Below, one piece after another: positions 19,108-63,362 of a stretch of 64,000 bases of DNA. The position numbers were made by a program, and so were the translations under genes. Under the pieces are notes generated by a model, which was not told where the DNA came from, did no database searches, and saw only the letters and a list, made by a program, of their open reading frames with translations. How positions within the stretch are numbered: position 1 is the stretch's first letter; the number at the start of each line of letters is the position of its first letter. The stretch is from Candidatus Accumulibacter conexus. Lineage in GTDB: Bacteria; Pseudomonadota; Gammaproteobacteria; Burkholderiales; Rhodocyclaceae. The stretch lies in the NCBI GenBank assembly GCA_017592775.1, contig JAGFNJ010000005.1, positions 62,246 through 126,245 on the forward strand, read 5' to 3'.

Positions 19108-19237
19108 TCACTTCCGCGCATTCGCGGTCTCGCCACCCCTGTTGTCGAAGGCTTGCAGGCGAAGCCACCCTTTCTGGCTGCCAGCATTCACGTTCCCGGC
19201 TGCCGGCTCGCGGGGGGCAGCATCGGGGCATGCGATC

Positions 19238-19960
19238 CTAAGCCAGCCTCGCCTCCAGCTTGCGCAGCGATGCGCGAACGGTGGCAGCCCTCGCGTCCCC
19301 AACCTCGTCGAGTTTGTCGCAGATCGCCCGCAGAACCTCGAGCGTCGCGTTCGGCGCACTGCTGCCAGCCTTGTCGACGAAGGCGCGGTAGGCTCGCTCG
19401 GCGCCCGGTACGTCCACTCCAAGCAATGCGCGGCAGTCGCCGAGGTCGGCCCACGCCCAGCCGCTGTCGCTGAGTTCCTGCTGTTCCGCCAAGTGCTTGG
19501 TGAGCAGCTTTTCCAGCGTTTCGATGTCCGTGGCAAGGTCGTCGAGGGAGCTCGCGCCCGAGAGCAGGGCCAACTTCACGGCGTTGACCCGATTGTACGT
19601 GCTCTGGTGAACGAAGCTCTCCTCCAACTCCGCGCCCTTGCGGTAGCTGTCGAGAGCGGCACGCGAATCGCCAAGGCGACGCAACATTCCCCCGCGACTG
19701 CCGTAGGCTTCGACGAGTTCGCGCGCGATCGCGGCCACCTCCGGGGTCGGATCCCCGGCGGGCACACGCTGCTCGCGGGGCCACTCGGGAAGGGCAAGCA
19801 GGAACCTGATGATCTCGTCCAATACACCCGCGCCGGCACGGAATTCGGCCACCGCTCTGCTCGCGTCGCCTGCCCTGCCAAACGCCTCGCCGCGCTTGCG
19901 CAGGAGCTTCGCCTGGCGATGCCTCTCGGCCACCTCATCCTGCCAGCGGCTCGCCGTCAT
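19238..19960 (-). CDS. all-helical TPR/DUF4071-like protein, last gene of the caspase operon
   Basis: 240-aa ORF. Its ATG overlaps the stop codon of the upstream caspase gene (ATGA overlap at 19957-19960). It shares motif order with the helical region of the 22916-24928 protein: SYRKGAEL..STYNRVNAVKLALL...GWAWADLGDCRALL versus PYHRAFVA..HYSGINALTLLLL...DYWARASHAEACLLL. Confidence 0.6.
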   Translation of the reverse strand: MTASRWQDEVAERHRQAKLLRKRGEAFGRAGDASRAVAEFRAGAGVLDEIIRFLLALPEWPREQRVPAGDPTPEVAAIARELVEAYGSRGGMLRRLGDSRAALDSYRKGAELEESFVHQSTYNRVNAVKLALLSGASSLDDLATDIETLEKLLTKHLAEQQELSDSGWAWADLGDCRALLGVDVPGAERAYRAFVDKAGSSAPNATLEVLRAICDKLDEVGDARAATVRASLRKLEARLA

Positions 19961-22245
19961 GGTGCGTCTCCTTTCAGCCTCTTGAGGATCGTCTCTGCCA
20001 GGGCGAAGTCTTCCGCCACATCGCTGTCGTACAGCGCTGCCGCAACGTCCTCGCCGAGCTTCTGGTGAAGCGCTTTCGCCGCCTCGGGAAACCCGCGCGG
20101 TTTGACCCGGTACTCAAGATAGAGCCAGGCCGCGATGCGCTGCTCCACCGCCGCGCGTTCAGCATCGCGTTTGATCGGCCTGCTGGCAGCGAACAACGTC
20201 TGCGTTGCCTCGACCCGATCCTTCTCGGTGCTGCTCAACGACTCGGCGGAGCGATCCAGCAGATCGTGCACCTCAGGATAGGCGACGCTGACCGGCTCGA
20301 TCGCTTCGCGGACGACCTGATGCACCCAGTTGTAGCTCGGATCGAGTTCGTCGAACGGCCTTCTCTTCACCAGTGCGTCGGCCAAGTCGTCGAAGGTTCT
20401 TGCGGCGCCCTTCTGGTATCGGCGGGGCTCGAGTTGGGCGTTCATCAGCGCCACCTGCTGGAGCTCGGGTCCCGACTGGCCGTCTGCTCTCCGGACGCGA
20501 GCCGCCAAGTCCGCCCCGGGCAGGTAGCGTTCATCGACGATCTGCAGCGCGCCCCAAGGGCTCACCGCGAGCCGGACTCCGAGTTCGAGGAACGAGGACG
20601 GACTGAAGAGGCTCCAGTCCATGACGCATCCGGCTACCCGGCGGATGTGCTCGTACAGTGCCTGCGAAACGAGCTGCGATGACCCCAGGTCGATCAGGCG
20701 ACGGACACGGGGCTGGCGCACCCCCCGCTGCTGGAGAGCCTTTTCCAGCCCGCGGCGCACGTATAGCCATGCTTCCCGATGTTCAGGACGAAAGGAGCAC
20801 AGTGCGAGCACCAGTCGATCCAACGGAATCGTGCCCCACGACTCGACATCGGAGCCGAGCTGGCGCAGCGAATCGTACGCTGGCAGGTCGAGGTAGCGCG
20901 GCTGCAGCAGGAGCTGATCAAAACCCCTCGCCGTACCCTCGATGAAGCGACGGACAACGGGGTCCTCGGCCACAGTCGTCTCGGTCTCACTGTGCGAGAA
21001 GACCTGCAGATCGCTCAGGTTGAACGGCGTCTCCAACTGGCGGCCTTCGCGCCAGCCGTAGCCGTGGCTGCACAGGGTCACTCCGCGCCGGGTCGCCGCG
21101 CGGATGCCGAGCAGGAACATCACGCCCGGCTCGAAGCGCGTCAGATCGAAAAAGGCCAGGTCGGCCTGGACGACGGCCCGGATCGTGTTCTTGAGTGAGG
21201 ATCGGTTCCTGAAGGCGTCGTGAACGCGAAAGACCACGGTCGTGACGCATCCGGCATCGAAGTCCTCCGGCAAGTCCCGACGGGTTCCAGCCACCGACGA
21301 CCGACCCAGCCAAGAGCGGCGGAAGCGCTGCCAGACGCTATCGCCGGCCTGCAGGAACACGTCATTCACCTTCTCACGCAATGGATCGTCGGATGAGAAG
21401 CCCGCATGCTCGGACTCGACGACGAGGCAGTGCAGCCGCCGCGGATCGAAGTTCTCCCAGAGCGCGCCGTCGGACGATCCGGCGGCCATCGCGGTCCGCC
21501 GGAAGATCGGCTGACGACTGAGCTGTTCCAGAGTGTCCGTGTTGATATCGCCCATGCTGCCAATCGAAGGTCTTTGCGGCGGGAGCCGGGGAAGGGCCGC
21601 TGCCGCGATCTCTTCGCATTGGCCGCCCGTCGCGTTCAGTACCTCCTGGAGCGTTTCGTTGCGGGAGTCCGGGGCGAGGGCTCGCGCCAGTGCAGCCGTA
21701 AAAACGCTGACATCCTTGCCATCACTGCCGCATCGCCAGACGTGGCAAAGCTCTTTCTCTGCGCAGCCGAAGATGCGGATGAAGTTCTTGTCCGGAAATG
21801 CCTGACTGCCCTTTGTCCACGGTCGCCCCCCTTTCTCCGTCCCGTGGTCGCAATCGTCGCGGCACGCATCGATGATGAAGATCACCAGCGCGTCCGGATC
21901 CACGACCGAGGGACTCAGGTCGGTCGAAACGCGGTGCGTGGCGCTGCGAGCTGCCTCAGCACGGCTGACGCCGGCGGGGAGGATCCATTCCTGGCCATCA
22001 ATCGAGACGCCGTGGCCGCTGAAGTAGACAATGCCGACGTCGCTGGTCACCTTCGCGCAGAAATCGCTGATCGCACTTTCGAGCAGGCTGGCATTCCTCA
22101 CCGTGTCGGCCGACACGACTTCGACCGCGAACCCACATGTCGTCAGCGTCCGCTTCATGAGCAGGACATCCTGCTCAGCGGCGGGGAGATTCGTGAAGCC
22201 GTCCCCGTACTCGGCAGCACCGATCAGCAGTGCGCGTCTCGCCAC
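19957..22245 (-). CDS. caspase (peptidase C14)-like domain protein with a central TIR/deoxyribosyltransferase-like module
   Basis: 762-aa ORF. The N-terminus ALLIGAAEYG...VYFSGHGV (His, about aa 78) ...FIIDACRDD (Cys, about aa 128) is a caspase His/Cys dyad pattern. The central ADLAFFDLTRFEPGVMFLLGIRAATRRGVTL resembles the N-terminal module of the 22916-24928 protein. GTG start lies 1 nt after the stop of the upstream small ORF. Confidence 0.8.
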   Translation of the reverse strand: MARRALLIGAAEYGDGFTNLPAAEQDVLLMKRTLTTCGFAVEVVSADTVRNASLLESAISDFCAKVTSDVGIVYFSGHGVSIDGQEWILPAGVSRAEAARSATHRVSTDLSPSVVDPDALVIFIIDACRDDCDHGTEKGGRPWTKGSQAFPDKNFIRIFGCAEKELCHVWRCGSDGKDVSVFTAALARALAPDSRNETLQEVLNATGGQCEEIAAAALPRLPPQRPSIGSMGDINTDTLEQLSRQPIFRRTAMAAGSSDGALWENFDPRRLHCLVVESEHAGFSSDDPLREKVNDVFLQAGDSVWQRFRRSWLGRSSVAGTRRDLPEDFDAGCVTTVVFRVHDAFRNRSSLKNTIRAVVQADLAFFDLTRFEPGVMFLLGIRAATRRGVTLCSHGYGWREGRQLETPFNLSDLQVFSHSETETTVAEDPVVRRFIEGTARGFDQLLLQPRYLDLPAYDSLRQLGSDVESWGTIPLDRLVLALCSFRPEHREAWLYVRRGLEKALQQRGVRQPRVRRLIDLGSSQLVSQALYEHIRRVAGCVMDWSLFSPSSFLELGVRLAVSPWGALQIVDERYLPGADLAARVRRADGQSGPELQQVALMNAQLEPRRYQKGAARTFDDLADALVKRRPFDELDPSYNWVHQVVREAIEPVSVAYPEVHDLLDRSAESLSSTEKDRVEATQTLFAASRPIKRDAERAAVEQRIAAWLYLEYRVKPRGFPEAAKALHQKLGEDVAAALYDSDVAEDFALAETILKRLKGDAP

Positions 22246-22246
22246 A

Positions 22247-22531
22247 CTACGGCTTCTTGAACTTCAGCGTGATCGAACCCGAGCCGCTGACTGTGGCTGT
22301 CCCGATGAACTGCACACCGCCTTCGGCGGTGATCTCGACACCGACCTCGACCTCCGAAAGCTCGTAGTTGCCGACCTGCCGAACGTCGCTGAAGACCTCG
22401 GCGAGCAACGCCGTCGCCGACTGCAGGTTTGCGCGCATCGTCGCAACCGGAATCGCGGCAACGCCGACCGCCCTGCCGCCCTTCGCCGGGATCTGCACCA
22501 GAATCGGAAGCGTTTCCTGGTCCGTGCTCAT
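22247..22531 (-). CDS. small beta-rich protein resembling peptidase-co-occurring (trypco2/Pepco-type) partners
   Basis: 94-aa product from ATG 22531, preceded by GGAGGAG. The C-terminal YELSEVEVGVEITAEGGVQFIGTATVSGSGSITLKFKKP matches my memory of the small proteins encoded next to trypsin/caspase peptidases in conflict systems. The longer ORF-track frame to 22855 is treated as spurious. Confidence 0.55.
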   Translation of the reverse strand: MSTDQETLPILVQIPAKGGRAVGVAAIPVATMRANLQSATALLAEVFSDVRQVGNYELSEVEVGVEITAEGGVQFIGTATVSGSGSITLKFKKP

Positions 22532-22915
22532 CTGCTCCTCCCTTCGTCGTTGCGGCGAGGAAACGTCGCCGACCTTCCCATCGTCTCGGCCTTCGCGTCG
22601 GCACATTGGTCCGTTCCTCGCTCTCAGGTCAGCAAATTCATCGACCGCGTCGCCGACCCCGCCCGCAACCGCCCATTTTTCGGCAACCAAGCTGCTCGAC
22701 GACTGGCGCGACGGCGACGCCTGCACCAAGAATGCACGAGCACGAGAAATCCAACGGCAACGACCCAAGTATATGAGCTTGCTTGAAGCAGCGTCAATCT
22801 CACGACAATCGCCTGGATGCGGCGGCCTGCAAGCATGGGCGAGATCTCGCGACACGGCAATTCGGCGGCAGGCGTCTCCTCATGCAGCGACCATGGCAGA
22901 CACGGCAAGCGGGCG

Positions 22916-24928
22916 TCACCACAGCCGGCGCGTATCGATCCAGCTCACCCGCCCGGTGCGCCGCTTGACTTCGTTGTACATGTGGCTGGTACCGCCGGGA
23001 CCGTCGCCGCCGCCGCCGTTCCACAGGCAGATGAAGCGGACCTTGTCGACACCCCAGGCGAGCGCGGTATGGAGCAGCCAGAGATTGCAGCGCTCGAAGG
23101 CGCTGATCGTCCTGCCGCGGCCTCCCGCAGGCAGCGGCCCGATTTCCTCGGGCATGATCCGCGGCTCGTCGGCCAGAGTCGCGGTGACGGCGAAGTAGCG
23201 CTCGCGCCACTGCTCGCCATTGCTTGCCGGCAGGATGGAGCGCTCGATGAACTCCGGTTCGGCGAACGGCAGCATCACTTGCAGGCGAACGCCACGCGCC
23301 TGGCAGGCCTCGAGGAACAGCAGATCACCACCGCTGGCCGCCTGCGACAAGGCCAGATCACCGGCTCCGACGCCGAGCTGGTCGAGAACCCGGGCAACCT
23401 GTTCCGCTGCCAGCCCTTCCCGGTCAGCAGGAAAGCGCGGCGGCAGGCGATCGGCGGCATCAATCCTGTGGCCGCTGAACAGCAGCACCTGCCGCGGTGC
23501 AAAGGGTGGCGTGCTGCGCGCGATCTCGCGCTCGACGATGCTCAGGGCAGCGGCCGTCTCCGCCGGGCGAAAATCGATGTCGCGCAACAGGCACAAGGTC
23601 TGCCGGCTCGATTCGAGGGCGAACCAGTCCCGGTTGGCCGCGGCGACCATGTGGCTGAACTCCCGGCGCACCGATTCGACCGGCGCCAGCAGCAGGCACG
23701 CCTCGGCATGGCTGGCACGCGCCCAGTAGTCCTTGCGATCGCGCTCCTGCGCCGTCAGGCTGGCCCAGCGCACGCCGCCGCCGAGGTTCTCGATCAGCCG
23801 GGGATCGCTGTCGCCACCCAGATGCTGCCGCAGCAGCAACAGCGTCAGGGCATTGATGCCGGAGTAATGGTGCGCAGGGTCGGCGACGAAGGCCCGATGA
23901 TAGGGCTCGATCGCCTCGCCCAGGGTAGCGTTCTCGAAACTGGCTGCCTCGCGCATCTGCAGCGGCGACAGCCCGGGCTGGCGCCAGAGCGCCACCCAGC
24001 GCTCCTTCTCGATGCGCCCGGCAAGCGCCCAGCATTCGGCGTCGCGGGGATGATCGGCGGTCAGCCGGTGCACCAGCTCGCGCGCTTCCTCGAAACGGCC
24101 GAGGCGGCCCAGGCAGACCGACTTCCTCTCCCGGCTCGGCTTGTCGTCGGCGTCGATCGTCAACGCCTGTTCGAACTGCTCGAGCGCCAGTTCGTACTGC
24201 TTGAGCTTCAGCAGCGCCTGTCCGGCGGTGCGCCTGGCCTCGAGCTGCAGCGCGCGCACCGGCGTCTCCCCGGCGAGGACGAGGATGTCGCCCGGCCGGT
24301 TCTTCTGCCGCGACACCTCCATCCGGTTCGCCCAGCTTTCATAGGCGTCGGAGAACTCGTTGCGTTCGGCGAGCAGGAGCCGGCGCCACTCCGGTTGCTC
24401 GAGCTGCGGCATCAGTTGGAAGACGGGGCTCACCTTGCGCCGCGTCGAACTGGCCATGCTGGCGCAGACCATCGCCGTCAGCGCTGCGCGATCCTGCTCG
24501 ACGGTCGCCGGGTCCGGCGCGCCGTCGCGCAGCGAGTAGCGCAGCTTGCGGTCGGTGTAGATGTCGAAGGGCTGGTTCGGCCGCGGCCCCTGCACCAGCA
24601 CCACCCCGCGTGCGCGCAGGGCATGCCGTACGCCGAGTTCGTACCAGACGTTCGGGTTGTCGAGGGTCAGATCGGCAACGACGAGATCGGCGATCAGCAA
24701 CTCCTGGAACATGTCGGTGCGGATGTCGCCGGCACGCTGCTCCTCGTCGGCGCGAAACACCTCCATCCCCGCCGCCTCGAGCGCCGGCCGGATGTACTCG
24801 GCATAGACGCGATTGAAGTCGATCAACTGGCCATCGGCTCCGGGCTTGCTGCCGAAGGGCATGGCGACGAAGGCGTGTGGCGGCATCGGCCTCTCCTCAG
24901 CGCGGCGCTGCGTTGGCAGCGGCAGCAA
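22916..24928 (-). CDS. TIR/deoxyribosyltransferase-like + DUF4071 (TRAF-binding-like TPR) + C-terminal SLOG/DprA-like Rossmann domain protein
   Basis: N-terminus FVAMPFGSKPG...ADLVVADLTLDNPNVWYELGVRHALRARGVVLV. The central helical repeats contain HYSGINALTLLLL. The C-terminus reads VLLFSGHRID...SQAASGGDLLFLEACQARGV...ICLWNGGGGDGPGGTSHM. The likely true start is ATG 24886 (MPPHAFVAMPFG, preceded by GAGGAGAGG). The ORF track opens at TTG 24928. Confidence 0.65.
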   Translation of the reverse strand: MLPLPTQRRAEERPMPPHAFVAMPFGSKPGADGQLIDFNRVYAEYIRPALEAAGMEVFRADEEQRAGDIRTDMFQELLIADLVVADLTLDNPNVWYELGVRHALRARGVVLVQGPRPNQPFDIYTDRKLRYSLRDGAPDPATVEQDRAALTAMVCASMASSTRRKVSPVFQLMPQLEQPEWRRLLLAERNEFSDAYESWANRMEVSRQKNRPGDILVLAGETPVRALQLEARRTAGQALLKLKQYELALEQFEQALTIDADDKPSRERKSVCLGRLGRFEEARELVHRLTADHPRDAECWALAGRIEKERWVALWRQPGLSPLQMREAASFENATLGEAIEPYHRAFVADPAHHYSGINALTLLLLRQHLGGDSDPRLIENLGGGVRWASLTAQERDRKDYWARASHAEACLLLAPVESVRREFSHMVAAANRDWFALESSRQTLCLLRDIDFRPAETAAALSIVEREIARSTPPFAPRQVLLFSGHRIDAADRLPPRFPADREGLAAEQVARVLDQLGVGAGDLALSQAASGGDLLFLEACQARGVRLQVMLPFAEPEFIERSILPASNGEQWRERYFAVTATLADEPRIMPEEIGPLPAGGRGRTISAFERCNLWLLHTALAWGVDKVRFICLWNGGGGDGPGGTSHMYNEVKRRTGRVSWIDTRRLW

Positions 24929-24942
24929 CCGGCACAGCGCGG

Positions 24943-27900
24943 CTACTCATCGGTTGCCGACCGGGCACGGCGCGGCCGGCCGGAGCGGCGCGGAGCATCG
25001 CCGCCCGCCAGCGGGCGGTCGACGCGCTCGCCCGCACCCGGCCAGACCTGTTCGATGAGCGCGACCAGACGGTCGGCCGCGAGCTGCCACCCCGTCTCGC
25101 CACTGGTGACCCGGCGGGCATCGCAGAAGCGTGACAGCATGCCAATCTGGCTGACGATCGAGTCGAGATCGCGCGGCCGCAAAGCGAGGCTCGCCAGCGT
25201 CTCGGCGTAGGCACGGGCGACTTCCTCGTACGCCCGCTCGCCGGCCTCGCCAGCCTGCAGCAGTTGCTGGTCGAGCAGGCGCTCGATCAGCAACGCGTCG
25301 GCGGCGATGAGCGCATCCCAGACGCCGGCGCCGCTCGCGCTGCCACCGCCGACGCCCTGCCGGCAGTGGCCGGCGAGCGCAATCGCCGCGGCGCGCTGCC
25401 CATCGTCGGGCAGCAGTGCCTCCAGGGCAAGGCGATTGAGCGCATTGTAGGCGCGGAACGAGCTGTCACCCGGCCTGCCCTCACCGGCGGCGTAGAAACG
25501 TGCGCTGTCAAGCAGCGCGCGGTCCACTGCCGCCGCCGCGTCGCCGTCCACCGCCCGCTGCTGCGCCGCACCGCCGTTCCAGGCGGCGAGCAGGCGCGTC
25601 GCATGCAGGCTGGCGAGGCGCTTGGCGGCACCACCGCGCAAGGCGCTGCGCTCGCCACCCGCCGTCGCTGGCGCCGCTCCGTCCGGCTGCCGGCCTGCCG
25701 CGGCGACGACCTGGTCGAGATCGGCGAGGCGTGCGAGAGCCCGCTCGATCAGGCCCGGATCGGCGCTGGCCTCACCGAGGCGAGCCTCGATGTTCGCCAG
25801 TTGCTCGATGGCGCCGATCGGCACTTGGCCGGCGTCATCGTCGTCCTGCAGCGCATCGAGATAGCAGTCACGCGCATCGGCAAACTGACCGAGATCGGCC
25901 CACAGCGCGCCGACGGCGAACTGTACCGCCGGCAGGCGCCGCCAGCCGGCGGGGCAGCGTTCCTTGAGCAGGCGACGGAGGTTCCTGACGCTGGCCTCGA
26001 TCTCGCGTCGTGTCTGCTGACGGCTCGCTCGCGCCAGCCCCGCCCGCCAGCTCACCAGTTCATCGAGCAGTTCGTCGACCGACGCGTAGCCCGAATCGTC
26101 GTTGCCGCGGCCCTCGAGGCGCGGCTCGGCCCGCCAGCCGGGATCGCCGTAGGCCTGGAAGGCACCCCAGGTGATGTCCTGCGCGTTGCTCCTCCAGACC
26201 GCCTTGCGCGCCGCGTACACCGCCTCGCCAAAGGGCAGTCGCTCGACCAGCAGATGGCGGTAGAAGGCATTGCCGAAAACCAGCGCCCCCTGATCGTCGA
26301 CCGCCCAGCCGGCAACGACGACGCAGCGTACACCGCAGTCGATCAGCTCGCGTGCGACGCTGGCGGCAAGCAGGTTGCCGTCACGCACCGTCGCCGCAGT
26401 GTCGGCAGCGGCGACGCTGTCGATCTTGCCGAGATGACAGCAACTGAGGAAGACCAGCTCGGGAACCGTCTCCATCGCCCTGATCTCGGCCGCCGTCAGC
26501 AGCAGCCCGTCGGAGAGGACGACGCCGCTGCGCCGCCGGCCATCGGCGTGCAACTGGTCGAAGACACCATGCGCCGAGATGTACAGCAGCCGATAGTTCT
26601 CCTGATACAGCCGCGTCAGCACGTCGCAAGCACGCCAATCGGCACCGATCGCCGACAGCACCTGATAGCCCATCGCCTGCAGTACGGCAGCCACCTCGTT
26701 CGCCTCGCTCTCGGCGCCGGGCAAGGGTGGCGGATTGGCGGCATCCGGCCGCCGCGGGTCGGGAAAGGCGCGGGTGAAGCCTTCGACCGAGGGATTGCCG
26801 ACGACGAAAGCCCGGCGCTCGAATCCCTGCCGTACCTGCCGCCGGAACTCGCTGGTGGCAAACTGCCGGACCACCGGCGTCCGCAGCGCCAGCGGCAGCT
26901 TCTCGCCACCGCCGCCCGGCGAGTCGGCGAACATCAGCTCCCACGGCAAGTTCGCCGTGTACTCGTCGACCACCAGGACGATCCGCTCGAGCTGCCGGGC
27001 AGCGTCCTTGAAATCGTTCGGCACCATCAGCTGGAAGAGCGCACGGCCGAAACTCTCCTGCCAGACCGTGCTGTGGATCTGCTGCCGGACCAGCATCTCG
27101 ACCAGTCCCGGCTGGCGCTGATGAACGATCGACTCGGCGCGCGCCCGCTGGCCGACATAGAGGAAACGCAGGCGATCGGTGACCGCCGTGCGCGCCGTCC
27201 GCGGCGCCCGCCCGGCGGCGTCGGCGGGCGCCGCGCCGACGGCAGCCGGCGCCGTCGCAGCCACCTCCGCCGGCTCCTGCCGAGCGGCGTCGGTGATCAT
27301 CAGACGCGGCCAGTAGGCAGACCCGCTGCGGTCGAACAGGCGCCGCCGCCAGCCTTCGCCCTGCTGCAATTGTGGCTGGCAGACCAGCGCGACGCCATGG
27401 CGGCCGAGCAGTCCGGCGAGGCGCTCGGGTACCCGGCGCAAGGCATACGCGGCGGTGATCGCCGTGTCCTGGTACAGCTCGACGATGTCGACCCGACTGA
27501 CCCGGATGTGACGCCGGGTTGCCTCGTGAAAGCGTGCGTTGGCCTCGATGACCCCACGCACCAGCGCTTCGACCGAAGCCGCAACCGAAACACTGGCCGA
27601 CGAGTTGTAGCCGAGGAGCAGCGTCGCCAGTGGCAGGTCGCGATCCTCGTCGCCGAGCACGTCGATCGCCTGCAGCAGGTAGCGCAGCACACCCGCCCGC
27701 ACCGCGGCCGTCAGATCCTCGACGTTCAGGCTGCCGTCGTAGCTCCCCAAACCACAGACGACGGCTCCGCGCAGCGACCCGCGCCGCCGCTCCTGTGCGT
27801 TCGGCAATCGCAGCACGACCGTCGCGCTGCCCCGCGGCCCGGCATAGAGGCCCAGGTTGTAGCGTTCGCCGAGATCGCCGTCGAGCAGTTCGCGGTCGAT

Positions 27901-30900
27901 CAGCGCCTCGGCGCCGGAAATCGGATCCTGCTCGTAGTGACCGAGCAGGATCGGCTGCTCGAGGAAACGCAGGTCCATCGCCCGCACGGCCACTTCCAGC
28001 CGGCGCTTCGAGCGCGGTGCGACGCGGTTGCGCGGCGCGCCTCCGAGCAGGCCGACGGCCACTGCTTCGCCGCTCGCCAGCATCGGCGGTCCTGCGTCAT
28101 AGACGACCGGCCGCGCCTCGCCATCGCCGCGCACTGCCGGCGGACTGCGCAGCAGGGCACCGGTGGCGCCGCTGTGCAGCAGTTCGGCGAGCGCCGGATG
28201 GTACTCGCGGGTCGACGGCAGATCGCCGTGCTGCGCCGGCATGTAGTAGTAACTGCCGATGTTCCCGATCCGCCCCGAGGCCCACGTCACCGTGCCGTCA
28301 CCCTGCGTCGTGCCGACCAGCTTCAGCCGCCCCTTCTCCTCGCGGATGCCGCACGGCGTGTTGCGCGCAACGCCGAAGACATAGACCGACTGCTGCTCGT
28401 ATTCCTTCGGCAGGGCGGGCGTCGGCTCGCCATCCTGCCGCCAGAGCCAGCTGCCCTCGTCGAGTTCCGCCTGGCTCGGCGTCGCCGACTGGCCGTCGCC
28501 AAACCAGAAATCCTTCACCTTCTGCCGGTAGTCCTGCCAGGTCTCGGCGCGCTCGAAGCTCTGCCCGCCCAGGCCACCGTCCGGCTGCCCCTGAAAGCAG
28601 TCGACGAAACCCGGCTTTGGCAGCAACTGCAGGGCGCCACGGAAACCGGAGACGATCTGCAGCACTTCGCGCATGTCGTGCCGGACATCGAGTCGCACCA
28701 GCGAGCGCAGCGTGTCACCCTTGCCGAGCAGGTTCTCGACCATCGAGTAGGCGCCCTGGTTCGGCGTGCCGAGCATCACCAGACGGGCGCCCGGCCGCGC
28801 CATCAGCGCATCCATCACCGGCCGCCGCCGATGGATGCAGGCACGCACGACGAGACCGCCCATGCTGTGCGCCAGCAGCCGGATCGGCTGTTGCGTCTCC
28901 AGCAGCAGCCGATCGAGCAGCGCAGCCAGGCGTTCGCCCAGCACGTCGAGCGGCTGCCGCCAGTCGTAGGCAAAGCTCTCGACACGGTGGCTGGCGGCGA
29001 GAAACCTGCAGAGATCGCCATAGAACATGCCGAACAGTTCCTCCGCCTCGACTTCCGGCTGTCCCCAGGCGATCTTGTCGAGGCCGCCACCGGCAATGTC
29101 GAGGGGATCGAACCAGACCCGGTCGCGGCGCCTGACCTGCAGGTGCGACCCCATGACGCCGGGCAGGACGACGACCACCGGCAGATCGGCGACCGCCGCT
29201 TCGCCACCACGCCGCAGCCGGGCGCCGGGCATGGCTGCGTCGGCGAAAGGCCCCGGCAACGGCTGGAAAGCCGCCAGCGAGCCGACATCGCCGCTCACCA
29301 GCCAGTCCCGCAGGGCTGCCCGCGTGTCGATGTTGCTGAAATAGGCGAAGTGCGATACCGCGGCGCCACGGTCGAACAGGGCCCGCGCCCGCGCCTGTGG
29401 CGCGATGCCGGCGTACATAGAATCGGTATCGACGACCAGATCGTTGTCGAGGTTGTCGAACAGCAGGAAGTCGGTCAGCAACACCCCCAGGCGCTGCAGC
29501 ACGCCGCCGCCCTCGATGTCACCGGCGATCACCGCCATCTCGATGCCCGAACGTACCGGCGCCTCGCGCAGCAGGCGCGCCATCGGTGACTCGGGCAGCA
29601 TCGCCTCGATGCCCGGCACCAGGTGGGCACTCGTCCGTCGCCGGGCGATCTCGAGCACGACACGCTTGAAGGCCGAATAGAGCGGATTGCCGAAGAAGAA
29701 CGGAATCTGTCCGAGCAGCGTCAACAGCCCGGAGAGAAAGACATCGAGGTTGCCGCTGGCCAGCCGCGTTCCCTGCGCCGGGCTGGCAACCCGCACGTAG
29801 CGCCGCACGACCAGCTTCTTCGCCGCCAGCTCGCTGGCCAGCGCCCGCAAGAGCTGCCGCTGTTCGCCATGCGCGTCGCCGATCTCGCGCTGCACGACCT
29901 GTGCGGCGGCGGCGTCGGTCTCGCCGGTGGCCGGCAGGTCGCTGCGATAGTGCTCGATCAGGTGGTCGAAATTCTCGAGGCAGATGAGATCACCGACCAG
30001 GCCGCCACGCGAGTGCGAAACCAGACTGAGCTGCAGACCGTCCGGCAGCGCCGCCAGCAACTGCCGCGCGTTCTCGATCGGGCTCTCGGACAGCGTCCGG
30101 TGCTCGAAGGCGTAGATGCGACCGTTGAACTGCCGCTCGAGAACGCTCCACAACTCGCGCTCGTCGAGTTGCAGATCGCCGAAGCTGCCGCGCGTGCTCG
30201 ACCCCGTGCCGTGGATGAAGACGAGGACCGGCTCACCCGCGACAGCAGCCTCCTGCAGCTCCCGCTGCGCCCGCGCCCGCGCCTGCTCGTCCGGTTCTGC
30301 GGCCGGCGCAGCGCCGCGCACCGGCTGCCAGCAGTAGACTCCCGGCTGCCGCTCCAGCCGCTGCTCGATGGCCCACATCAGGGCCTTGGTTCCGAGCCAG
30401 GAAACGCCCAGTTCGACGGCATCGGAACCCCTGCCCCGTGTCAGCTCGGCAAGCCGCTTCCTGGCGTCGGTGATGATCGCGTCTTCACTGGCGCCGACCG
30501 CCAGCGCGAAAACGCGGCTGATCAGGCCGCCGACGAGATCGCCGGCGAGCCCGCGCGTCGCCGCGCCGTCGCTGCGCAGGCGATCGAACAGGATCTCGCC
30601 CTCGCTGCCGAGGAGGTCGGGACGGCTGCGTGCCAGCGACGCCTGCAGCTCGCTGGCGCTGGTGATCAGCACCCCGCCGTCAGCCAGTTCGATGACCAGC
30701 ACCTCGTCCGCCTGCGCCACGTACTTCTGGCTGACGGCGGTGGCGCCGCGCGCCGTCGCGCCGATCTCGAAGCAGGCTCGCGGCTGCAGGTAGCCCGCCG
30801 GCATGAACGGATCATCGCCGGCATCGGCGGCGCGCCGGACGTTGCGCAGCAGTGCCGGCAAGGGTGCCTGATCCTGCGGGCTGGCCGTCAGGTCGAGAAT

Positions 30901-30915
30901 CGTGGTCTGCGACAT
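24943..30915 (-). CDS. giant multidomain protein: two alpha/beta-hydrolase (lipase/LCAT/PGAP1-like) domains + CHAT caspase-fold protease + C-terminal helical repeats
   Basis: About 1990 aa from ATG 30915, preceded by GGAG. Hydrolase 1: VLVFIHGTGSS...LVSHSRGGLV (about aa 250-325 of the ORF-track frame). Hydrolase 2: VVVLPGVMGSHL...RLLAHSMGGLVVRA (about aa 598-710). CHAT: LLYISAHGVF...ELVFLSCCHLGK (about aa 1461-1515). The tail is Ala/Leu-rich and helical. Confidence 0.8.
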   Translation of the reverse strand: MSQTTILDLTASPQDQAPLPALLRNVRRAADAGDDPFMPAGYLQPRACFEIGATARGATAVSQKYVAQADEVLVIELADGGVLITSASELQASLARSRPDLLGSEGEILFDRLRSDGAATRGLAGDLVGGLISRVFALAVGASEDAIITDARKRLAELTRGRGSDAVELGVSWLGTKALMWAIEQRLERQPGVYCWQPVRGAAPAAEPDEQARARAQRELQEAAVAGEPVLVFIHGTGSSTRGSFGDLQLDERELWSVLERQFNGRIYAFEHRTLSESPIENARQLLAALPDGLQLSLVSHSRGGLVGDLICLENFDHLIEHYRSDLPATGETDAAAAQVVQREIGDAHGEQRQLLRALASELAAKKLVVRRYVRVASPAQGTRLASGNLDVFLSGLLTLLGQIPFFFGNPLYSAFKRVVLEIARRRTSAHLVPGIEAMLPESPMARLLREAPVRSGIEMAVIAGDIEGGGVLQRLGVLLTDFLLFDNLDNDLVVDTDSMYAGIAPQARARALFDRGAAVSHFAYFSNIDTRAALRDWLVSGDVGSLAAFQPLPGPFADAAMPGARLRRGGEAAVADLPVVVVLPGVMGSHLQVRRRDRVWFDPLDIAGGGLDKIAWGQPEVEAEELFGMFYGDLCRFLAASHRVESFAYDWRQPLDVLGERLAALLDRLLLETQQPIRLLAHSMGGLVVRACIHRRRPVMDALMARPGARLVMLGTPNQGAYSMVENLLGKGDTLRSLVRLDVRHDMREVLQIVSGFRGALQLLPKPGFVDCFQGQPDGGLGGQSFERAETWQDYRQKVKDFWFGDGQSATPSQAELDEGSWLWRQDGEPTPALPKEYEQQSVYVFGVARNTPCGIREEKGRLKLVGTTQGDGTVTWASGRIGNIGSYYYMPAQHGDLPSTREYHPALAELLHSGATGALLRSPPAVRGDGEARPVVYDAGPPMLASGEAVAVGLLGGAPRNRVAPRSKRRLEVAVRAMDLRFLEQPILLGHYEQDPISGAEALIDRELLDGDLGERYNLGLYAGPRGSATVVLRLPNAQERRRGSLRGAVVCGLGSYDGSLNVEDLTAAVRAGVLRYLLQAIDVLGDEDRDLPLATLLLGYNSSASVSVAASVEALVRGVIEANARFHEATRRHIRVSRVDIVELYQDTAITAAYALRRVPERLAGLLGRHGVALVCQPQLQQGEGWRRRLFDRSGSAYWPRLMITDAARQEPAEVAATAPAAVGAAPADAAGRAPRTARTAVTDRLRFLYVGQRARAESIVHQRQPGLVEMLVRQQIHSTVWQESFGRALFQLMVPNDFKDAARQLERIVLVVDEYTANLPWELMFADSPGGGGEKLPLALRTPVVRQFATSEFRRQVRQGFERRAFVVGNPSVEGFTRAFPDPRRPDAANPPPLPGAESEANEVAAVLQAMGYQVLSAIGADWRACDVLTRLYQENYRLLYISAHGVFDQLHADGRRRSGVVLSDGLLLTAAEIRAMETVPELVFLSCCHLGKIDSVAAADTAATVRDGNLLAASVARELIDCGVRCVVVAGWAVDDQGALVFGNAFYRHLLVERLPFGEAVYAARKAVWRSNAQDITWGAFQAYGDPGWRAEPRLEGRGNDDSGYASVDELLDELVSWRAGLARASRQQTRREIEASVRNLRRLLKERCPAGWRRLPAVQFAVGALWADLGQFADARDCYLDALQDDDDAGQVPIGAIEQLANIEARLGEASADPGLIERALARLADLDQVVAAAGRQPDGAAPATAGGERSALRGGAAKRLASLHATRLLAAWNGGAAQQRAVDGDAAAAVDRALLDSARFYAAGEGRPGDSSFRAYNALNRLALEALLPDDGQRAAAIALAGHCRQGVGGGSASGAGVWDALIAADALLIERLLDQQLLQAGEAGERAYEEVARAYAETLASLALRPRDLDSIVSQIGMLSRFCDARRVTSGETGWQLAADRLVALIEQVWPGAGERVDRPLAGGDAPRRSGRPRRARSATDE

Positions 30916-31066
30916 CGTCGTCTCCTTCGCACCTGCTTCTTCAGACGGCCGCGTACCCCACGGCCGCAAGTGGCAACAGCATCCTGGTCAGCGCCGACCC
31001 CGATCCAGGCACGTCAGCTCTGGCGACTGCCCCTTGCCGCGACAGCGCCGGCGCGATACGGACCGA

Positions 31067-31909
31067 TCAGGTGAGAACCTTCCGCTGACGCGCGTCCGCG
31101 CTGCCGAAGATCTGCGGCGTCTGCGGATACGAGGCAGACGGCAGGTTGGCCGGCGTGATGCGGGCATGCCAGTCAGCATAAGTGGCACCGGCAGGCAGCG
31201 CACGCAGGGTCTTCAACGCGTAGTAGGTGAAAGCACCGCAGGGACGGCCGCCAATCCTGGCGTCGTAGCTGAAGTTGTTCGGCCCTTCCTTGCAGCCGGC
31301 GAGCAGCAGGTCACCGGCCATCCGCGACAGCGCACCGGCAAAAGGCGACAGACCCGAAGTGACCTGGACCGTCGTCAGCGGCTGCCCGCTGAAACCGCGC
31401 GGCAACTGGTCGGCAGGCAGCCAGTTGCCCATCGGCATGAAGCGCGGTCGCGGCGCGTCATCGGCATCCGGATCGGCCAGCGCCGCCCGCGTCACCGTCC
31501 CCGAATGGCAGCTGTCAGAAATCAGCAGCAGCCGCACGCCCGCCTTGCGGGCCGCAAACAGGGTATTGATCTCGTCATCGATCAGGGCGCCGCCACCGGT
31601 CTGCAGGTCGTACGGACACAGCGCCTCGTCGAGTCCGTCAACTTCGTCGCCGTTGAGGTCGGGGACATAGGTTCCGTGTCCCGAGAAGGTCATCACGACG
31701 ACGTCGCCACTGACTGCCGAACCGATCAGCGACTGGATGCCACTGACCATCGCTGCCTTGGTGGCCTGGCTGTCGATCAGCTTGCTGACGGTGAAACCGC
31801 GCGTCGCCAGTTCGCCGGCCCAGTCGTTGGCGTCGTTGACGCAGCCATTCAGGTCCATGTGCGTGCCGGGATAGTTGTTGACACCGATGCAAAGCGCGCG
31901 CTTGCTCAT
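31067..31909 (-). CDS. metacaspase-like peptidase C14 family protein
   Basis: 280-aa ORF. ALCIGVNNYPG...LNGCVNDA...VVMTFSGHGT (His) ...LLLISDSCHSGT (Cys). ATG at 31909 is preceded by AGGAGG. Confidence 0.85.
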   Translation of the reverse strand: MSKRALCIGVNNYPGTHMDLNGCVNDANDWAGELATRGFTVSKLIDSQATKAAMVSGIQSLIGSAVSGDVVVMTFSGHGTYVPDLNGDEVDGLDEALCPYDLQTGGGALIDDEINTLFAARKAGVRLLLISDSCHSGTVTRAALADPDADDAPRPRFMPMGNWLPADQLPRGFSGQPLTTVQVTSGLSPFAGALSRMAGDLLLAGCKEGPNNFSYDARIGGRPCGAFTYYALKTLRALPAGATYADWHARITPANLPSASYPQTPQIFGSADARQRKVLT

Positions 31910-32052
31910 GACTGCCTCCTGTGGTCTGATGATTTATCGGGGATTGCGATCTCCAGTGTAGCAAGCGCCCGGCGAATGACAACCCCCACGGCGGCCAAGC
32001 CATGCGCTCACGGCTGCGAAGTCGTCGCGCACGGGGCGGAAAGTCAACAGGC

Positions 32053-32084
32053 AAAAAAAAAAAGCGAGCCCGCCACGAGCTCGC
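32053..32084 (-). terminator. rho-independent terminator downstream of the OmpA-like gene
   Basis: On the minus strand, stem GCGAGC / GCTCGC with a 9-nt loop is followed by a run of 11 T (plus-strand A-run 32053-32063). It lies 24 nt after the stop at 32108. Confidence 0.65.
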
Positions 32085-32107
32085 CGGCACGCCATCAACT
32101 TTGGCGA

Positions 32108-48189: not shown

Positions 48190-48199
48190 GCAAGCTTGC
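48190..48199. promoter_or_regulatory. 10-bp palindrome GCAAGCTTGC (copy 1 of 3), candidate operator
   Basis: A perfect palindrome 66 nt upstream of the CARF-wHTH gene ATG. The 13-mer CGCAAGCTTGCCG is identical to copy 2. Confidence 0.3.
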
Positions 48200-48264
48200 C
48201 GTTGCTCGCGTGGTCGGCAAGAATGGCGAAAATTCGCGCCATACCAACGCGGAGCCCAAGAACA

Positions 48265-49413
48265 ATGCCCAATCTCAGCGAACCCCCAGGCGACTACCCC
48301 CGGCGCGTCCTCGTCGCCGTCACCGGCCTGTCGCCGCAGATCGTCACCGAGACCCTGTACGCGCTGGCGATCGCCGCCGAAGGAACACCTTTCGTCCCGA
48401 CCGAGATCCATCTGATCACCACCCGCAGCGGCGCGGAGAAAGCCCGCCTGGCGCTGCTTTCGGACGACCCCGGCTGGTTCCATCAGCTCTGCCACGACTA
48501 CGAACTGCCGCCGATCCGCTTCGCCGCCGACACCATTCATGTCCTCCGGGACGGCGATGGCGGCGCCCTTGAGGACATCCGGTCACTCGACGACAATCGC
48601 CACGCCGCCGACGGCATCACCGAACTCGTTCGCGCCTTCACCGCCGACCCGGACTGCGCGCTGCACGTATCGATCGCCGGCGGGCGGAAGACGATGGGCT
48701 TCTTCCTCGGCTATGCGCTGTCACTCTACGGCCGGCCGCAGGACAGGCTGTCGCACGTCCTCGTGTCCGAGCCGTTCGAATCGAGCGGCGGCTTCTACTA
48801 CCCGACGCCCTTCAGCCGTGTCCTCGAGCTGCCTGGCGGCCGTCTCGTCGACACCGCGAACGCGCTGATCACCCTTGCCGAGTTGCCTTTCGTGAGCCTG
48901 CGGCACGGCTTGCCGGAGGCGCTGCTGACCGGTCACGCCAGCTACAACCAGACGGTCGAGGCCGCCCGGCAGGCGCTGGCGCCACCCGAACTGCAACTGG
49001 ACCTCGCCGCGCGCCGCGTGCGCGCCGCCGGCAAGGTCTTCGCCCTGCCCCCAGCCGAACTCGCGCTGCTCAGCGTCTTTGCACGGCGCGCACTGCGCGG
49101 CGAAGCGCCGCTGCCCGCCCCACCGAAGGAACTGCCGGACGTCGAATGGCGACAGCGCTACCTGATCGAACTGCGCTGGATCGACGGTCTCCTGGGCGAA
49201 CGCGACGACACCGAGCGCGCACTGAAGAAGGGCATGGACGGCGGTTACTTCTCGACGCACCTGTCGAAGCTCAGGAAAATCCTGCAGCGCGAACTCGGCC
49301 CCGCCGCCGCTCCCTATCTGATCAGCGACGGCGGCAGCCGGCCGCGCCGCTACAGCCTTGAGCTGCGGCCGACGGCGGTAGGCTATGGTGCCCTCGACAA
49401 TGCAGCGTCGTAG
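48265..49413 (+). CDS. CRISPR-associated CARF protein (NE0113/TIGR02584-like) with C-terminal OmpR/PhoB-type winged-helix domain
   Basis: N-terminus RVLVAVTGLSPQIVTETLYAL...LHVSIAGGRKTMGFFLGYALSLYGRPQDRLSHVLVSEPFE (CARF Rossmann pattern). C-terminus PAELALLSVFARRAL...YFSTHLSKLRKILQREL...YLISDGGSRPRRYSL resembles trans_reg_C. ATG at 48265. Confidence 0.75.
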   Translation: MPNLSEPPGDYPRRVLVAVTGLSPQIVTETLYALAIAAEGTPFVPTEIHLITTRSGAEKARLALLSDDPGWFHQLCHDYELPPIRFAADTIHVLRDGDGGALEDIRSLDDNRHAADGITELVRAFTADPDCALHVSIAGGRKTMGFFLGYALSLYGRPQDRLSHVLVSEPFESSGGFYYPTPFSRVLELPGGRLVDTANALITLAELPFVSLRHGLPEALLTGHASYNQTVEAARQALAPPELQLDLAARRVRAAGKVFALPPAELALLSVFARRALRGEAPLPAPPKELPDVEWRQRYLIELRWIDGLLGERDDTERALKKGMDGGYFSTHLSKLRKILQRELGPAAAPYLISDGGSRPRRYSLELRPTAVGYGALDNAAS

Positions 49414-49465
49414 GACCAGTCCCTTGCCGCTCTCGCCACCCCTACTGCAAACCGATCAAGGATAG

Positions 49466-50641
<1,176 letters not shown>

Positions 50642-50655
50642 CCGGGAGACCAAAC

Positions 50656-53319: not shown

Positions 53320-53335
53320 GTACCGCCCAGGAATC

Positions 53336-53345
53336 GCAAGCTTGC
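53336..53345. promoter_or_regulatory. 10-bp palindrome GCAAGCTTGC (copy 2 of 3), candidate operator or internal regulatory site
   Basis: Lies in the 79-bp cas10-csm2 gap, 54 nt upstream of the csm2 ATG. Confidence 0.3.
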
Positions 53346-53398
53346 CGAACCAGAGAACGCCACCCACTTTCCGCATAATGCGCCAAGGAGATCAACTG

Positions 53399-53770
53399 AT
53401 GGACATCAACCTCGCCACCTTCCCGCCGGACGCCGAGCTGTTCAACATGGAGGCCGAAAAAGTCGCCAACCGCCTCAACCAAGCCCCCGGCACAGTCAAC
53501 AAGCCGACGCAGATCCGCCGCTTCTACGACGAACTGGTCGGCTGGCAGGAGCGCATCGACGGCGACGACGAAAGGTTCAGGCAATACGAAGCCTTCATTC
53601 GCATGCTCAACGCCAAGGTCGCCTACGCCAAGGGCCGCCGCCTGGTCGATGATGAATTCGTCGGCTGGTTCCGCCAGTGCATCAAGACCACCACCAACGC
53701 CAGGGCACTGGACCACTTCCGCCTGCACTTCGAAGCCGTCCTCGGCTTCCTCAAGGCGCTGCGCGCCTGA
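53399..53770 (+). CDS. csm2: type III-A small subunit Csm2 (Cas11)
   Basis: 123-aa helical protein placed between cas10 and csm3. The KPTQIRRFYDEL...AKVAYAKGR pattern is typical of Csm2. ATG at 53399 is preceded by AAGGAG. Confidence 0.75.
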   Translation: MDINLATFPPDAELFNMEAEKVANRLNQAPGTVNKPTQIRRFYDELVGWQERIDGDDERFRQYEAFIRMLNAKVAYAKGRRLVDDEFVGWFRQCIKTTTNARALDHFRLHFEAVLGFLKALRA

Positions 53771-53790
53771 CAACCCAGGGAGACAAGAGA

Positions 53791-54501
53791 ATGCAACTCA
53801 CGCAGATCAAACAACTGACGGCCATCCTCGTGCTGCGCACCGGCCTGCACATCGGTGCCGGCGATACCGAGATGCGTATCGGCGGTACCGACAATCCGGT
53901 CGTCAAGAACCCCCTGGATGGCCAGCCCTACATCCCCGGTTCATCGCTCAAGGGCAAGATCCGTTCGCTCCTCGAATGGCAGCTCGGTCTGGTCAGTGCC
54001 GCCAACGGCCACCCCTTCTCCTTCGAGCACCTCGCGAGGGATGACCGTCCCGAGGCACGCAACCTGCTGCGCCTGTTCGGCGGTGCGCCGGGCGCCAATG
54101 TCGACAAGCTCGTCAACGAAATCGGCCCGACACGCAGTGCATTCTGGGACTGCGCCCTGAACGCTGACTGGCTCGGCAGGGCACGCGCGCGCAACCTGTT
54201 GACCATCGAGGCGAAAAGCGAGAACTCGATCAACCGCATCGCCGGGGTCGCCGAAAACCCCCGCTTCACCGAGCGCGTCATCGCCGGTGCCGAATTCGAC
54301 TTCCGGCTTTCGCTGAAGGTGATCGACGGTGAAGACCTCCTCCCGCTGCTGCTGCGTGGCCTCAAGCTACTCGAAATGGACAGTCTCGGCGGCTCGGGGT
54401 CGCGCGGCTACGGCAAGATCGCGCTGTCCGGGCTGGCACTCGACGGTCGGTCGATTCAGGCCGACTTCGACGCCATCGAGCCCTTCCCGGCCGGCACCTG
54501 A
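53791..54501 (+). CDS. csm3: type III-A RAMP protein Csm3 (Cas7)
   Basis: LRTGLHIGAGDTEMRIGGTDNPVVKNP...PYIPGSSLKGKIRSLLE and a C-terminal GGSGSRGYGKI glycine loop. Confidence 0.9.
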   Translation: MQLTQIKQLTAILVLRTGLHIGAGDTEMRIGGTDNPVVKNPLDGQPYIPGSSLKGKIRSLLEWQLGLVSAANGHPFSFEHLARDDRPEARNLLRLFGGAPGANVDKLVNEIGPTRSAFWDCALNADWLGRARARNLLTIEAKSENSINRIAGVAENPRFTERVIAGAEFDFRLSLKVIDGEDLLPLLLRGLKLLEMDSLGGSGSRGYGKIALSGLALDGRSIQADFDAIEPFPAGT

Positions 54502-54504
54502 ACC

Positions 54505-62908: not shown

Positions 62909-63008
62909 GTCGGGCGACCATGCGGTGGCCACCGGTGCTCCGCTCTCGGCTTCCGTCCCGACAGAGCACCGTCAGCGAAATCGGGCGCAACCCCCTGGAT
63001 GGCAAGTG

Positions 63009-63018
63009 GCAAGCTTGC
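63009..63018. promoter_or_regulatory. 10-bp palindrome GCAAGCTTGC (copy 3 of 3), candidate operator
   Basis: Lies between the last degenerate repeat and cas2, 41 nt upstream of the cas2 ATG. Confidence 0.3.
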
Positions 63019-63058
63019 GGATCGGGACAGCCGCGCCGCCGACGTCTATCGTTGCGCC

Positions 63059-63346: not shown

Positions 63347-63362
63347 GGAAAGGAGAGAAGCG

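Follow-up and report, generated by a model that had tools for sequence, protein, structure and literature searches.

Side-by-side candidate protease-gated modules in a six-gene region of Candidatus Accumulibacter conexus

A 64,000-nucleotide stretch of DNA from Candidatus Accumulibacter conexus (contig JAGFNJ010000005.1), referred to here as the window, contains six co-oriented genes on its minus strand. They lie between an OmpA-family gene upstream, which is marked by a strong terminator-like hairpin (stem 32063-32085), and the genes rpsF-priB-rpsR-rplI-dnaB downstream, which run in the same orientation. An initial annotation, made from the letters alone, had proposed this layout. It is borne out by the open reading frames (ORFs), by the OmpA terminator and by gene calls made independently on public contigs of identical sequence, and ENA contigs with exact copies of the fifth gene keep the same gene order as the window. 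The genes are named G1 to G6 in the order in which they are read:

31067-31909, minus strand: G1, 280 amino acids (aa), a stand-alone metacaspase-like C14 protease
24943-30915, minus strand: G2, 1990 aa, two hydrolases, CHAT and TPR-S-like repeats
22916-24886, minus strand: G3, 656 aa, TIR/DrHyd-like, TPR-S/DUF4071 and SLOG-like parts
22247-22531, minus strand: G4, 94 aa, Pepco
19957-22245, minus strand: G5, 762 aa, a caspase/paracaspase-like head, two domains like the N-domain of G3, and a helical tail
19238-19960, minus strand: G6, 240 aa, helical

The initial annotation had started G3 at an upstream TTG at 24928. Since homologues of G3 are 650-656 aa long, this codon is not the start, which lies at 24886. 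The translational coupling proposed for G4, G5 and G6 stands, as the gap between G4 and G5 is 1 nt and G5 and G6 overlap by 4 nt. The six genes had also been read as a single island. The region is instead composed of two or three modules placed side by side.

The clearest boundary surrounds the trio G4-G6. In the closest relatives, Accumulibacter SCELSE-3 (L007), A. iunctus (L008) and A. adjunctus (L009), the order is OmpA-G1-G2-G3-rpsF, and G3 is 91-95% identical to that of the window. By blastn, L007 and L008 have 10-42 bp between G3 and rpsF in place of the stretch with the trio, which therefore lies on an insertion of about 3.7 kb. The proportion of G and C at third codon positions is 0.72-0.82 in the trio versus 0.85-0.87 in G2 and G3. 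Two other Accumulibacter contigs (L087 and L088) share the insertion, with 79% identity for G5 versus 92% for G3.

The ends of the insertion, at about 22850 and 19125, show a poor and imperfect similarity, GTCGCGAGATCTCGC versus GTGGCGAGACCGCG, and both resemble the single site of the relatives that lack the trio. No target-site duplication is claimed from this, given the imperfect match and the lack of an integrase; neither an integrase nor a transposase was found within the insertion. A consensus scan also finds three promoter-like sites, one of them before rpsF. The insertion and the two other sites, which are pattern evidence only, are placed as follows:

19114-22838, no strand assigned: trio-bearing insertion, about 3.7 kb, from blastn breakpoints and alignments
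22768-22797, minus strand: promoter-like site before G4, within the insertion, 10/12 hexamer matches
31955-31982, minus strand: promoter-like site before G1, just past the OmpA terminator, 9/12 hexamer matches

The first gene of the trio, G4, matches the Pfam family Pepco (PF24393) with 67.3 bits (cut-off 27) and an E-value of 2e-18. It also matches Trypco1 (28.8 bits, cut-off 24.6). The Pepco and Trypco families come from Kaur et al. 2020 (PMC7159879), and Pepco has been shown experimentally to be a protease-activated pore (PMC12642450; Evans et al., bioRxiv 2025.11.14.688446). The trypsin-like Avs4 removes a C-terminal tail of about 2 kDa from SsPepco, which leads to toxicity, and the proteases reported to accompany Pepco, of the serine or cysteine type, are fused to sensors of various kinds (PMC12642450). 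The small peptidase partner of the initial annotation is thus a Pepco protein. G4 is predicted to be a beta-barrel effector in the pre-pore state. An iterated hidden Markov model of Pepco detects the family in 16 metagenome loci, in each case upstream of a G5 relative; loci where this relative has a trypsin head are among them.

G5 begins with a protease that matches Pfam Peptidase_C14 (E 1e-19), and its H78 and C128 are invariant in homologues. In the AlphaFold2 model, with a predicted local distance difference test score (pLDDT) of 79, the caspase domain is followed by two alpha/beta domains of Rossmann-like fold and then by a tail of helices. The initial annotation had seen a single TIR-like domain after the protease; there are two. 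Its parts are:

21511-22245, minus strand: aa 1-245, caspase/paracaspase-like head (Pfam, Foldseek)
20851-21462, minus strand: aa 262-465, domain D1, TIR/DrHyd-like and similar to the N-domain of G3 (hhalign)
20401-20838, minus strand: aa 470-615, domain D2, TIR/DrHyd-like and similar to the N-domain of G3 (hhalign)
19960-20400, minus strand: helical tail (AlphaFold2 model)

Pfam finds no credible family in D1, D2, the tail or G6. Their relationship to G3 comes from profile-profile comparison. With hhalign, the N-domain of G3 scores 84% against D1 and 83% against D2 (E about 1e-5), while controls stay below 10%. The glutamate of the ELG.R motif is kept in D2 (E554, invariant) but not in D1. 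G6 in turn scores 84% (E 7e-6) against the distal part of the TPR-S/DUF4071 region of G3, with controls at or below 2%. As judged from sequence, G5 and G6 together rebuild the front two-thirds of G3.

G6 is an obligate partner of G5. Of 49 metagenome loci, 40 extend beyond the G5 homologue on its downstream side, and in 37 of them the next gene is a G6 homologue; the remaining three belong to distant G5 relatives with 30% identity. Detectable members of the G5 family number 181, and most are about 755 aa long. Relatives of about 980-1050 aa that include a TPR part are fusions of G5 and G6, as seen by reading all six frames. One caspase-headed clade with about 40% identity to G5 has the fusion, at about 1000 aa (L094 5947-9102, L099 5941-9039; P0124, P0143, P0167, P0176). 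The small ORFs upstream of this clade were considered and set aside; they look spurious, and no Pepco is found there. In some relatives, Trypsin_2 takes the place of the caspase head, either alone or together with TIR_2.

The trio is found in several neighbourhoods. In one locus (L146), Pepco-G5-G6 is followed by a full-length paralogue of G3 that is 42% identical over all three domains, and G5 is 74% identical to that of the window. Two DDE transposase genes flank this unit (L146 1-2656), which hints that the four genes move with insertion sequence (IS) elements. In two further loci (L091 and L112), a 446-aa DUF4071/TPR-S protein (Pfam E 1e-36) adjoins the trio, on either side of it. Another locus (L147) has a TIR-STAND protein beside the trio in place of the G3-type protein, and in three others (L148, L149 and L092) the trio is alone. 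A G3-type or DUF4071 protein thus adjoins the trio in four independent settings; the loci are the window, L087, L088, L146, L091 and L112.

G3, the gene between the trio and the G1-G2 pair, encodes a protein of three parts:

24437-24886, minus strand: aa 1-150, TIR/DrHyd-like N-domain with a YELG motif (Glu83)
23525-24361, minus strand: aa ~176-454, TPR-S/DUF4071 repeats (Pfam)
22919-23524, minus strand: aa 455-656, SLOG-like Rossmannoid C-domain (fold, weak profile matches)

The middle part agrees with the initial annotation, with Pfam matches to TPR-S (E 3e-21) and MAP3K_TRAF_bd (DUF4071). The names given to the two ends come from weaker matches. For the N-domain, the generic 'Effector TIR' model of PADLOC matches aa 39-131 (E 1.6e-6), and Pfam TIR_2 gives an E-value of 0.016, under the cut-off. 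For the C-domain, Pfam has no credible family. Profiles of the two end domains find nothing significant among PDB sequences; DNPH1 alone recurs, at E-values of about 0.7-1.2, and these weak alignments pair the YELG glutamate of G3 with the catalytic glutamate motif of DNPH1.

The AlphaFold2 model of G3 (pLDDT 83.5, predicted template modelling score 0.76) has an N-terminal alpha/beta domain, parts of which fall below a pLDDT of 50, a long TPR solenoid and a C-terminal Rossmannoid domain with five strands, which carries the glycine-rich loops SGGD and GGGGDGPGGT. Structure comparison by Foldseek, which had been suggested for both proteins, was informative in part. For G5, the top PDB matches are MALT1 and caspases only, with the end domains unreadable, and for the whole G3 model they are TPR proteins only, again with unreadable ends. 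The classes of the G3 end domains appear only against the viral models of BFVD, in matches for which the output does not give the aligned region:

CMP/hydroxymethyl-CMP hydrolase: E 2e-4
DprA-like protein: E 1.6e-3, template modelling score 0.72 normalised to the target length
nucleoside 2-deoxyribosyltransferase (NDT): E 0.03
TIR protein: E 0.09

These model-based matches support a placement of the end domains in the TIR-DrHyd-SLOG (TDS) class, which has been described before (PMC9503650).

A search with the C-domain profile yields 3177 representative proteins. Of 33 relatives that consist of the C-domain alone, 6 match the YAcAr family of SLOG domains (best E 0.003), and no other family recurs. 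The dyad of TPR-S and C-domain is fused elsewhere to patatin, Ser/Thr kinase, AAA_35 plus TIR_2, ParA-like and sigma54-AAA heads. As effector-type heads take the place of the N-domain in these relatives, the N-domain of G3 occupies the 'output' position.

One of these fusions, a bacterial Ser/Thr kinase joined to TPR-S and the SLOG-like domain (P0399), touches on another question. The DUF4071/PF13281 module sits at the front of the ASK-family MAP3 kinases of animals. The 446-aa bacterial DUF4071 proteins mentioned above (L091 7026-8366, L112 4035-5375) align with nearly the full length of the Pfam 'MAP3K TRAFs-binding' (ASK1) profile, with an E-value of 1e-36. Together, the profile match and the kinase fusion point to a bacterial root for the regulatory region that the ASK-type MAP3 kinases of animals carry at their N-terminus. 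The literature searched contained nothing on bacterial DUF4071 or DUF7379 proteins.

Relatives of G3 occur in 546 species genomes in a profile scan with one genome per GTDB species, and the best 80 of the 546 loci were analysed by tblastn and clustering. A patatin phospholipase of about 395 aa adjoins G3 in 19 of the 80, and G2 is near G3 in about 25. Some of the G2-G3 and G3-patatin pairs, in several genomes, have start and stop codons that overlap by 4 nt. Other tight neighbours are a clostripain-family protease, a TIR_2 protein, an nSTAND1-WD40 protein and further TPR-S proteins. The trio adjoins G3 in none of the 80. Among IMG/VR viral contigs, only distant relatives of the G3 N-domain were found.

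These data bear on a rival explanation, in which G1-G2, G3 and the trio are three self-contained systems that happen to share a permissive integration spot. G3 would then be a sensor and effector in one protein, with the SLOG and TPR-S parts sensing and the DrHyd/TIR-like head depleting NAD+ or nucleotides. This fits the many G3-centred loci that have neither G1-G2, patatin nor any other recurrent neighbour, the patatin, kinase and TIR heads that relatives carry in the N-domain position, and the alignment of the YELG glutamate with the catalytic residue of DNPH1, a weak match with an E-value of about 1. It also fits the loci where G2 (L136 and L139) or the trio (L148, L149 and L092) is alone. 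However, the adjacency of G3 to G2, to patatin and, together with DUF4071 proteins, to the trio is far above chance for families this rare. The G3 pairs recur in varying gene orders, with overlapping stop and start codons, and G5-G6 copies the domain types of G3, which suggests homotypic contacts. Wholly independent neighbours are somewhat unlikely. In the neighbourhoods as a whole, a G3-type protein often accompanies one of three membrane-targeting arms, though not obligately.

The remaining pair, G1 and G2, is a tight one that often stands alone. G1 matches Peptidase_C14 (E 2e-21), as expected of the metacaspase it had been called. Its H78 (SGHG) and C134 (DSCHSG), together with an acidic cluster of the metacaspase type, are invariant in 15 homologues. 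The domain set proposed for G2 is also borne out by Pfam:

aa 1-230, minus strand: N-terminal region, no credible Pfam family
29341-30225, minus strand: aa ~231-525, hydrolase 1, DUF7379 (Pfam, E 2e-33)
28216-29181, minus strand: aa ~579-900, hydrolase 2, LCAT/Abhydrolase_6-like (Pfam)
26143-27051, minus strand: aa 1289-1591, CHAT protease (Pfam, E 2e-30)
24946-26118, minus strand: aa ~1600-1990, TPR-S-like repeats (weak Pfam match)

Scans of sub-sequences from the N-terminus and the middle region of G2 give no credible Pfam family. The residues S302/H522, S684/D873/H896 and H1449/C1492-C1493 are invariant across homologues, of which at least 1270, about 2000 aa long, share a G2-like architecture. 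Many of these have a precomputed TPR-S match, in contrast to hhalign, which gives no support (1.6%) for a relationship between the C-terminus of G2 and the TPR-S region of G3. With G1 and G5, this accounts for the His/Cys dyads noted earlier in three proteases, and the putative catalytic residues of caspase, CHAT and hydrolase domains are all invariant. G2 thus links a caspase-fold protease to alpha/beta-hydrolases in cis, through its CHAT domain, and G1 adjoins it.

The pairing was examined from both sides. Among the best 80 G3-centred loci, G1 adjoins G2 in 17 of the roughly 25 that contain G2. Among six loci centred on G2, G1 is adjacent in three, all from Burkholderiales (L137, L140 and L141), and in each of these an rlpA-like gene (DPBB_1 and SPOR domains) is directly upstream of G1-G2. 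In a further G2-centred locus, from Ideonella sp. YS5 (L138 1-6960), two giant co-oriented genes (>1371 and 1180 aa) lie directly upstream of the G2 homologue and replace G1. Neither has a Pfam match.

It remains to ask whether all six genes could still act as one system, for example with a G3 signal that sets off a cascade of CHAT and caspase and ends in lipase and Pepco effectors. The genes are co-oriented and tightly spaced, TPR-S-type repeats are present in G2, G3 and G6, TIR-like domains are present in G3 and G5, and related Accumulibacter contigs (L001, L002 and L087) have the same six-gene order. Yet close relatives keep G1-G2-G3 without the trio, no G3-centred locus of the species scan has the trio beside G3, the trio occurs elsewhere without G1 or G2 and G2 without G3, and the insertion has a promoter-like site of its own. 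A single integrated system is very improbable. Of a co-conservation of the six orthologues, only the looser links survive, those between G3 and the trio and those between G3 and G1-G2.

The reading preferred here, at a probability of about 0.5, is that the region is a stack of separable protease-gated suicide modules of the abortive-infection type. None of them would depend on a nucleoside triphosphatase (NTPase), and they would not form one obligate six-gene machine. The lack of an NTPase had been noted before, and it holds: no Walker-A motif and no NTPase Pfam match is present in the six proteins. The general character of a conflict system is likewise upheld by the domains and by the intact catalytic residues. 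Swaps of caspase and trypsin heads with or without TIR_2, fusions of G5 with G6, and the variety of heads on the TPR-S and C-domain dyad reflect a modularity that is typical of such systems.

For the trio, the sensor would consist of the paired TIR/DrHyd-like domains and the helical tail of G5 together with the TPR-S-like G6, and it would detect a trigger or bind G3. The paracaspase-like head, probably specific for arginine or lysine, would then become active and clip the Pepco barrel G4, and the membrane would be permeabilised. In G1-G2, proteolysis may license the hydrolysis of lipids or esters by the two lipase domains, or else promiscuous proteolysis. This step could be a cascade from CHAT to G1, self-processing of G2, or both.

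G3 would most likely act upstream, as a sensor, signal generator or adaptor that senses through its SLOG-like and TPR-S parts. Its output could be a nucleotide made or destroyed by the N-domain, or the nucleation of an assembly. It may plug into alternative membrane-targeting arms, namely patatin, G1-G2 or the Pepco trio, and here it sits between two of them. A stronger form of this idea makes G3 an NTPase-free hub sensor, which would recruit and activate interchangeable death arms either through homotypic assembly of TIR-like and TPR-S parts or through a nucleotide that it makes or binds. This is a tentative and rather doubtful extension. If it is true, one sensor controls two protease-gated membrane killers in this strain, and the arrangement is a bacterial analogue of adaptor-driven caspase activation that uses the DUF4071/PF13281 module of ASK-family MAP3 kinases.

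Several observations weigh against the stack of suicide modules. The Pepco proteins linked to caspases, G4 included, stop 2-12 aa past a conserved ..SGSITLKF motif, and those linked to trypsins terminate at ..WDFS. The C-terminal tail of about 2 kDa that is cut from SsPepco is thus missing in G4 and in its caspase- and trypsin-linked relatives (L087-L092, L109-L131), so an activating cut may lie elsewhere in these proteins. No recognisable Pepco is found upstream of the clade with about 40% identity to G5, and no G5 relatives are found in IMG/VR viral contigs. The 'TIR-like' and 'SLOG-like' labels are soft, as they derive from weak sequence, profile-profile and fold matches. In the six G2-centred loci, G3 never adjoins G2. 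PADLOC calls no system on the six proteins and gives weak single-domain matches only (caspase, BovA/CHAT and TIR effector), in line with the earlier impression that no named defence system is present. Finally, G3 is unusually conserved, with 60-70% identity across orders, and the conserved chromosomal site of G1-G2 beside rlpA looks unusual for a mobile defence gene.

The last two points would also suit a role outside immunity, such as programmed cell death under stress, the remodelling of membranes or controlled proteolysis in Accumulibacter, which forms flocs, and in other Burkholderiales. The housekeeping genes that flank the region (the rpsF operon and OmpA) are consistent with this, and possible roles of protease-effector modules in stress responses have been raised by the authors of PMC12642450. 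Against such a role, the trio is present or absent at the level of strains and can be bordered by IS elements (L146). Swapping of heads and effectors and the presence of TIR-STAND neighbours (L147 and L027) are typical of immune systems, and the Pepco family acts in phage-triggered death (PMC12642450). A non-immune role is, on this evidence, quite unlikely, and the suicide modules are compared below with systems that are already known.

The effector logics themselves, Pepco with a protease and caspase with a hydrolase, are of known kinds. Like the described Pepco-protease modules, the trio has a small Pepco gene immediately upstream of a sensor-fused protease, and its caspase and trypsin heads are interchangeable. 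It is also predicted to share the licensing of a pre-formed beta-barrel pore by the protease. The sensor of the trio, however, is no STAND/Avs, FGE or peptidoglycan-binding domain but consists of two TIR/DrHyd-like domains and a separate or fused TPR-S-like protein, with no NTPase. The short end of its Pepco, 2-12 aa past the LKF motif, is a further difference from SsPepco.

Pairs of a caspase and an alpha/beta-hydrolase are a described class (PMC7159879, PMC12642450), in which LcCaspase activates the hydrolase zymogen LcHydrolase (PMC12642450). G1-G2 shares with this pair the genetic tie between caspase-fold proteases and lipase-like alpha/beta-hydrolases with intact triads. It differs in that G2 fuses two hydrolases in cis to CHAT and TPR-S in a protein of about 2000 aa, with a metacaspase adjoining, and in that no vWA-MoxR or STAND partner is present at G1-G2. 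The NTPase-free character also separates the region from Avs and from the vWA-MoxR ternary systems, which have a P-loop NTPase.

A CHAT protease beside a small stand-alone caspase-like protease is also seen in type III-B CRISPR, where SAVED-CHAT and PCaspase form a proteolytic cascade (Steens et al. 2024, as summarised in bioRxiv 2024.10.24.620036 and PMC12642450). Purely by analogy, G2 and G1 might form a two-step cascade as well. G2 differs from the CRISPR system in having no SAVED domain or link to cyclic oligoadenylate, a sensor of the TPR-S type, and added lipase domains. Borvo shares only the CHAT domain, through a weak and partial PADLOC match of BovA to G2 (E 4.6e-5, aa 1403-1577, 175 aa). 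Its architecture is entirely different, and G2 is not a member.

In Thoeris types I and IV, a signal made by a TIR protein is sensed by a SLOG-SIR2 or a caspase-like effector (bioRxiv 2024.10.24.620036). The region likewise combines TIR-like and SLOG-like Rossmannoid domains with caspase-like effectors, and nucleotide signalling is plausible. In G3, however, the N-domain looks nearer to DrHyd/NDT than to a canonical TIR domain, and the TIR-like and SLOG-like parts are in one polypeptide. PADLOC finds no match to ThsA or ThsB in the six proteins, and the C-terminal regions of the type IV caspase and G5 differ, as far as can be told. G3 fits the theme of the 'nucleotide-centric' systems of TPR-S, SLOG and DrHyd domains (Burroughs, Aravind; Pfam PF20308 TPR-S), including their swappable effector heads.

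Three features seem new, although earlier catalogues of the Aravind group may list the exact architectures or the pairing: a TIR-like/TPR-S sensor that would serve a Pepco-caspase module without an NTPase, the giant of two lipases and CHAT with its partner metacaspase, and the recurrent pairing of a G3-type protein with three effector arms.

In bacterial immunity, death effectors licensed by a protease are coming to be seen as a dominant logic, and most of the sensors known from studies to date are STAND/Avs NTPases or belong to CRISPR or CBASS signalling. The region offers a sensor architecture without an NTPase for a Pepco-caspase module, in the form of tandem TIR/DrHyd-like domains and a TPR-S partner. 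A second offering is a very large and widespread family in which two lipase domains are joined to a CHAT protease, and a third is a conserved protein of TIR-like, TPR-S and SLOG-like parts, found beside three different membrane-targeting effectors. If G3 is a shared upstream sensor, it would be a tractable model for the rewiring of one sensor to different effectors, and for how the regulatory region of ASK-type kinases arose in bacteria. Accumulibacter is a key organism of phosphorus-removing wastewater plants, and its phage-resistance traits are therefore of practical interest.

Two general scans added little: Rfam finds no RNA family in the window, and the NCBIfam scan contributes nothing decisive. 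The window does contain a type III-A CRISPR-Cas locus at 48196-57095, with Csx1/CARF, Cas10/Csm1, Csm3 and Csm5. It is followed by an array of 69 repeats at 58104-~62900 (repeat GTCAGTATGCAGCCCTGAAAACAAAGGGATTGAGAC, spacing about 70 nt) and by a Cas1 match near 63000-64000. The locus and array are 16-31 kb from the six genes, which shows a defence-rich neighbourhood and not direct adjacency. The array also accounts for the drop in G+C content to 0.51 at 58-62 kb.

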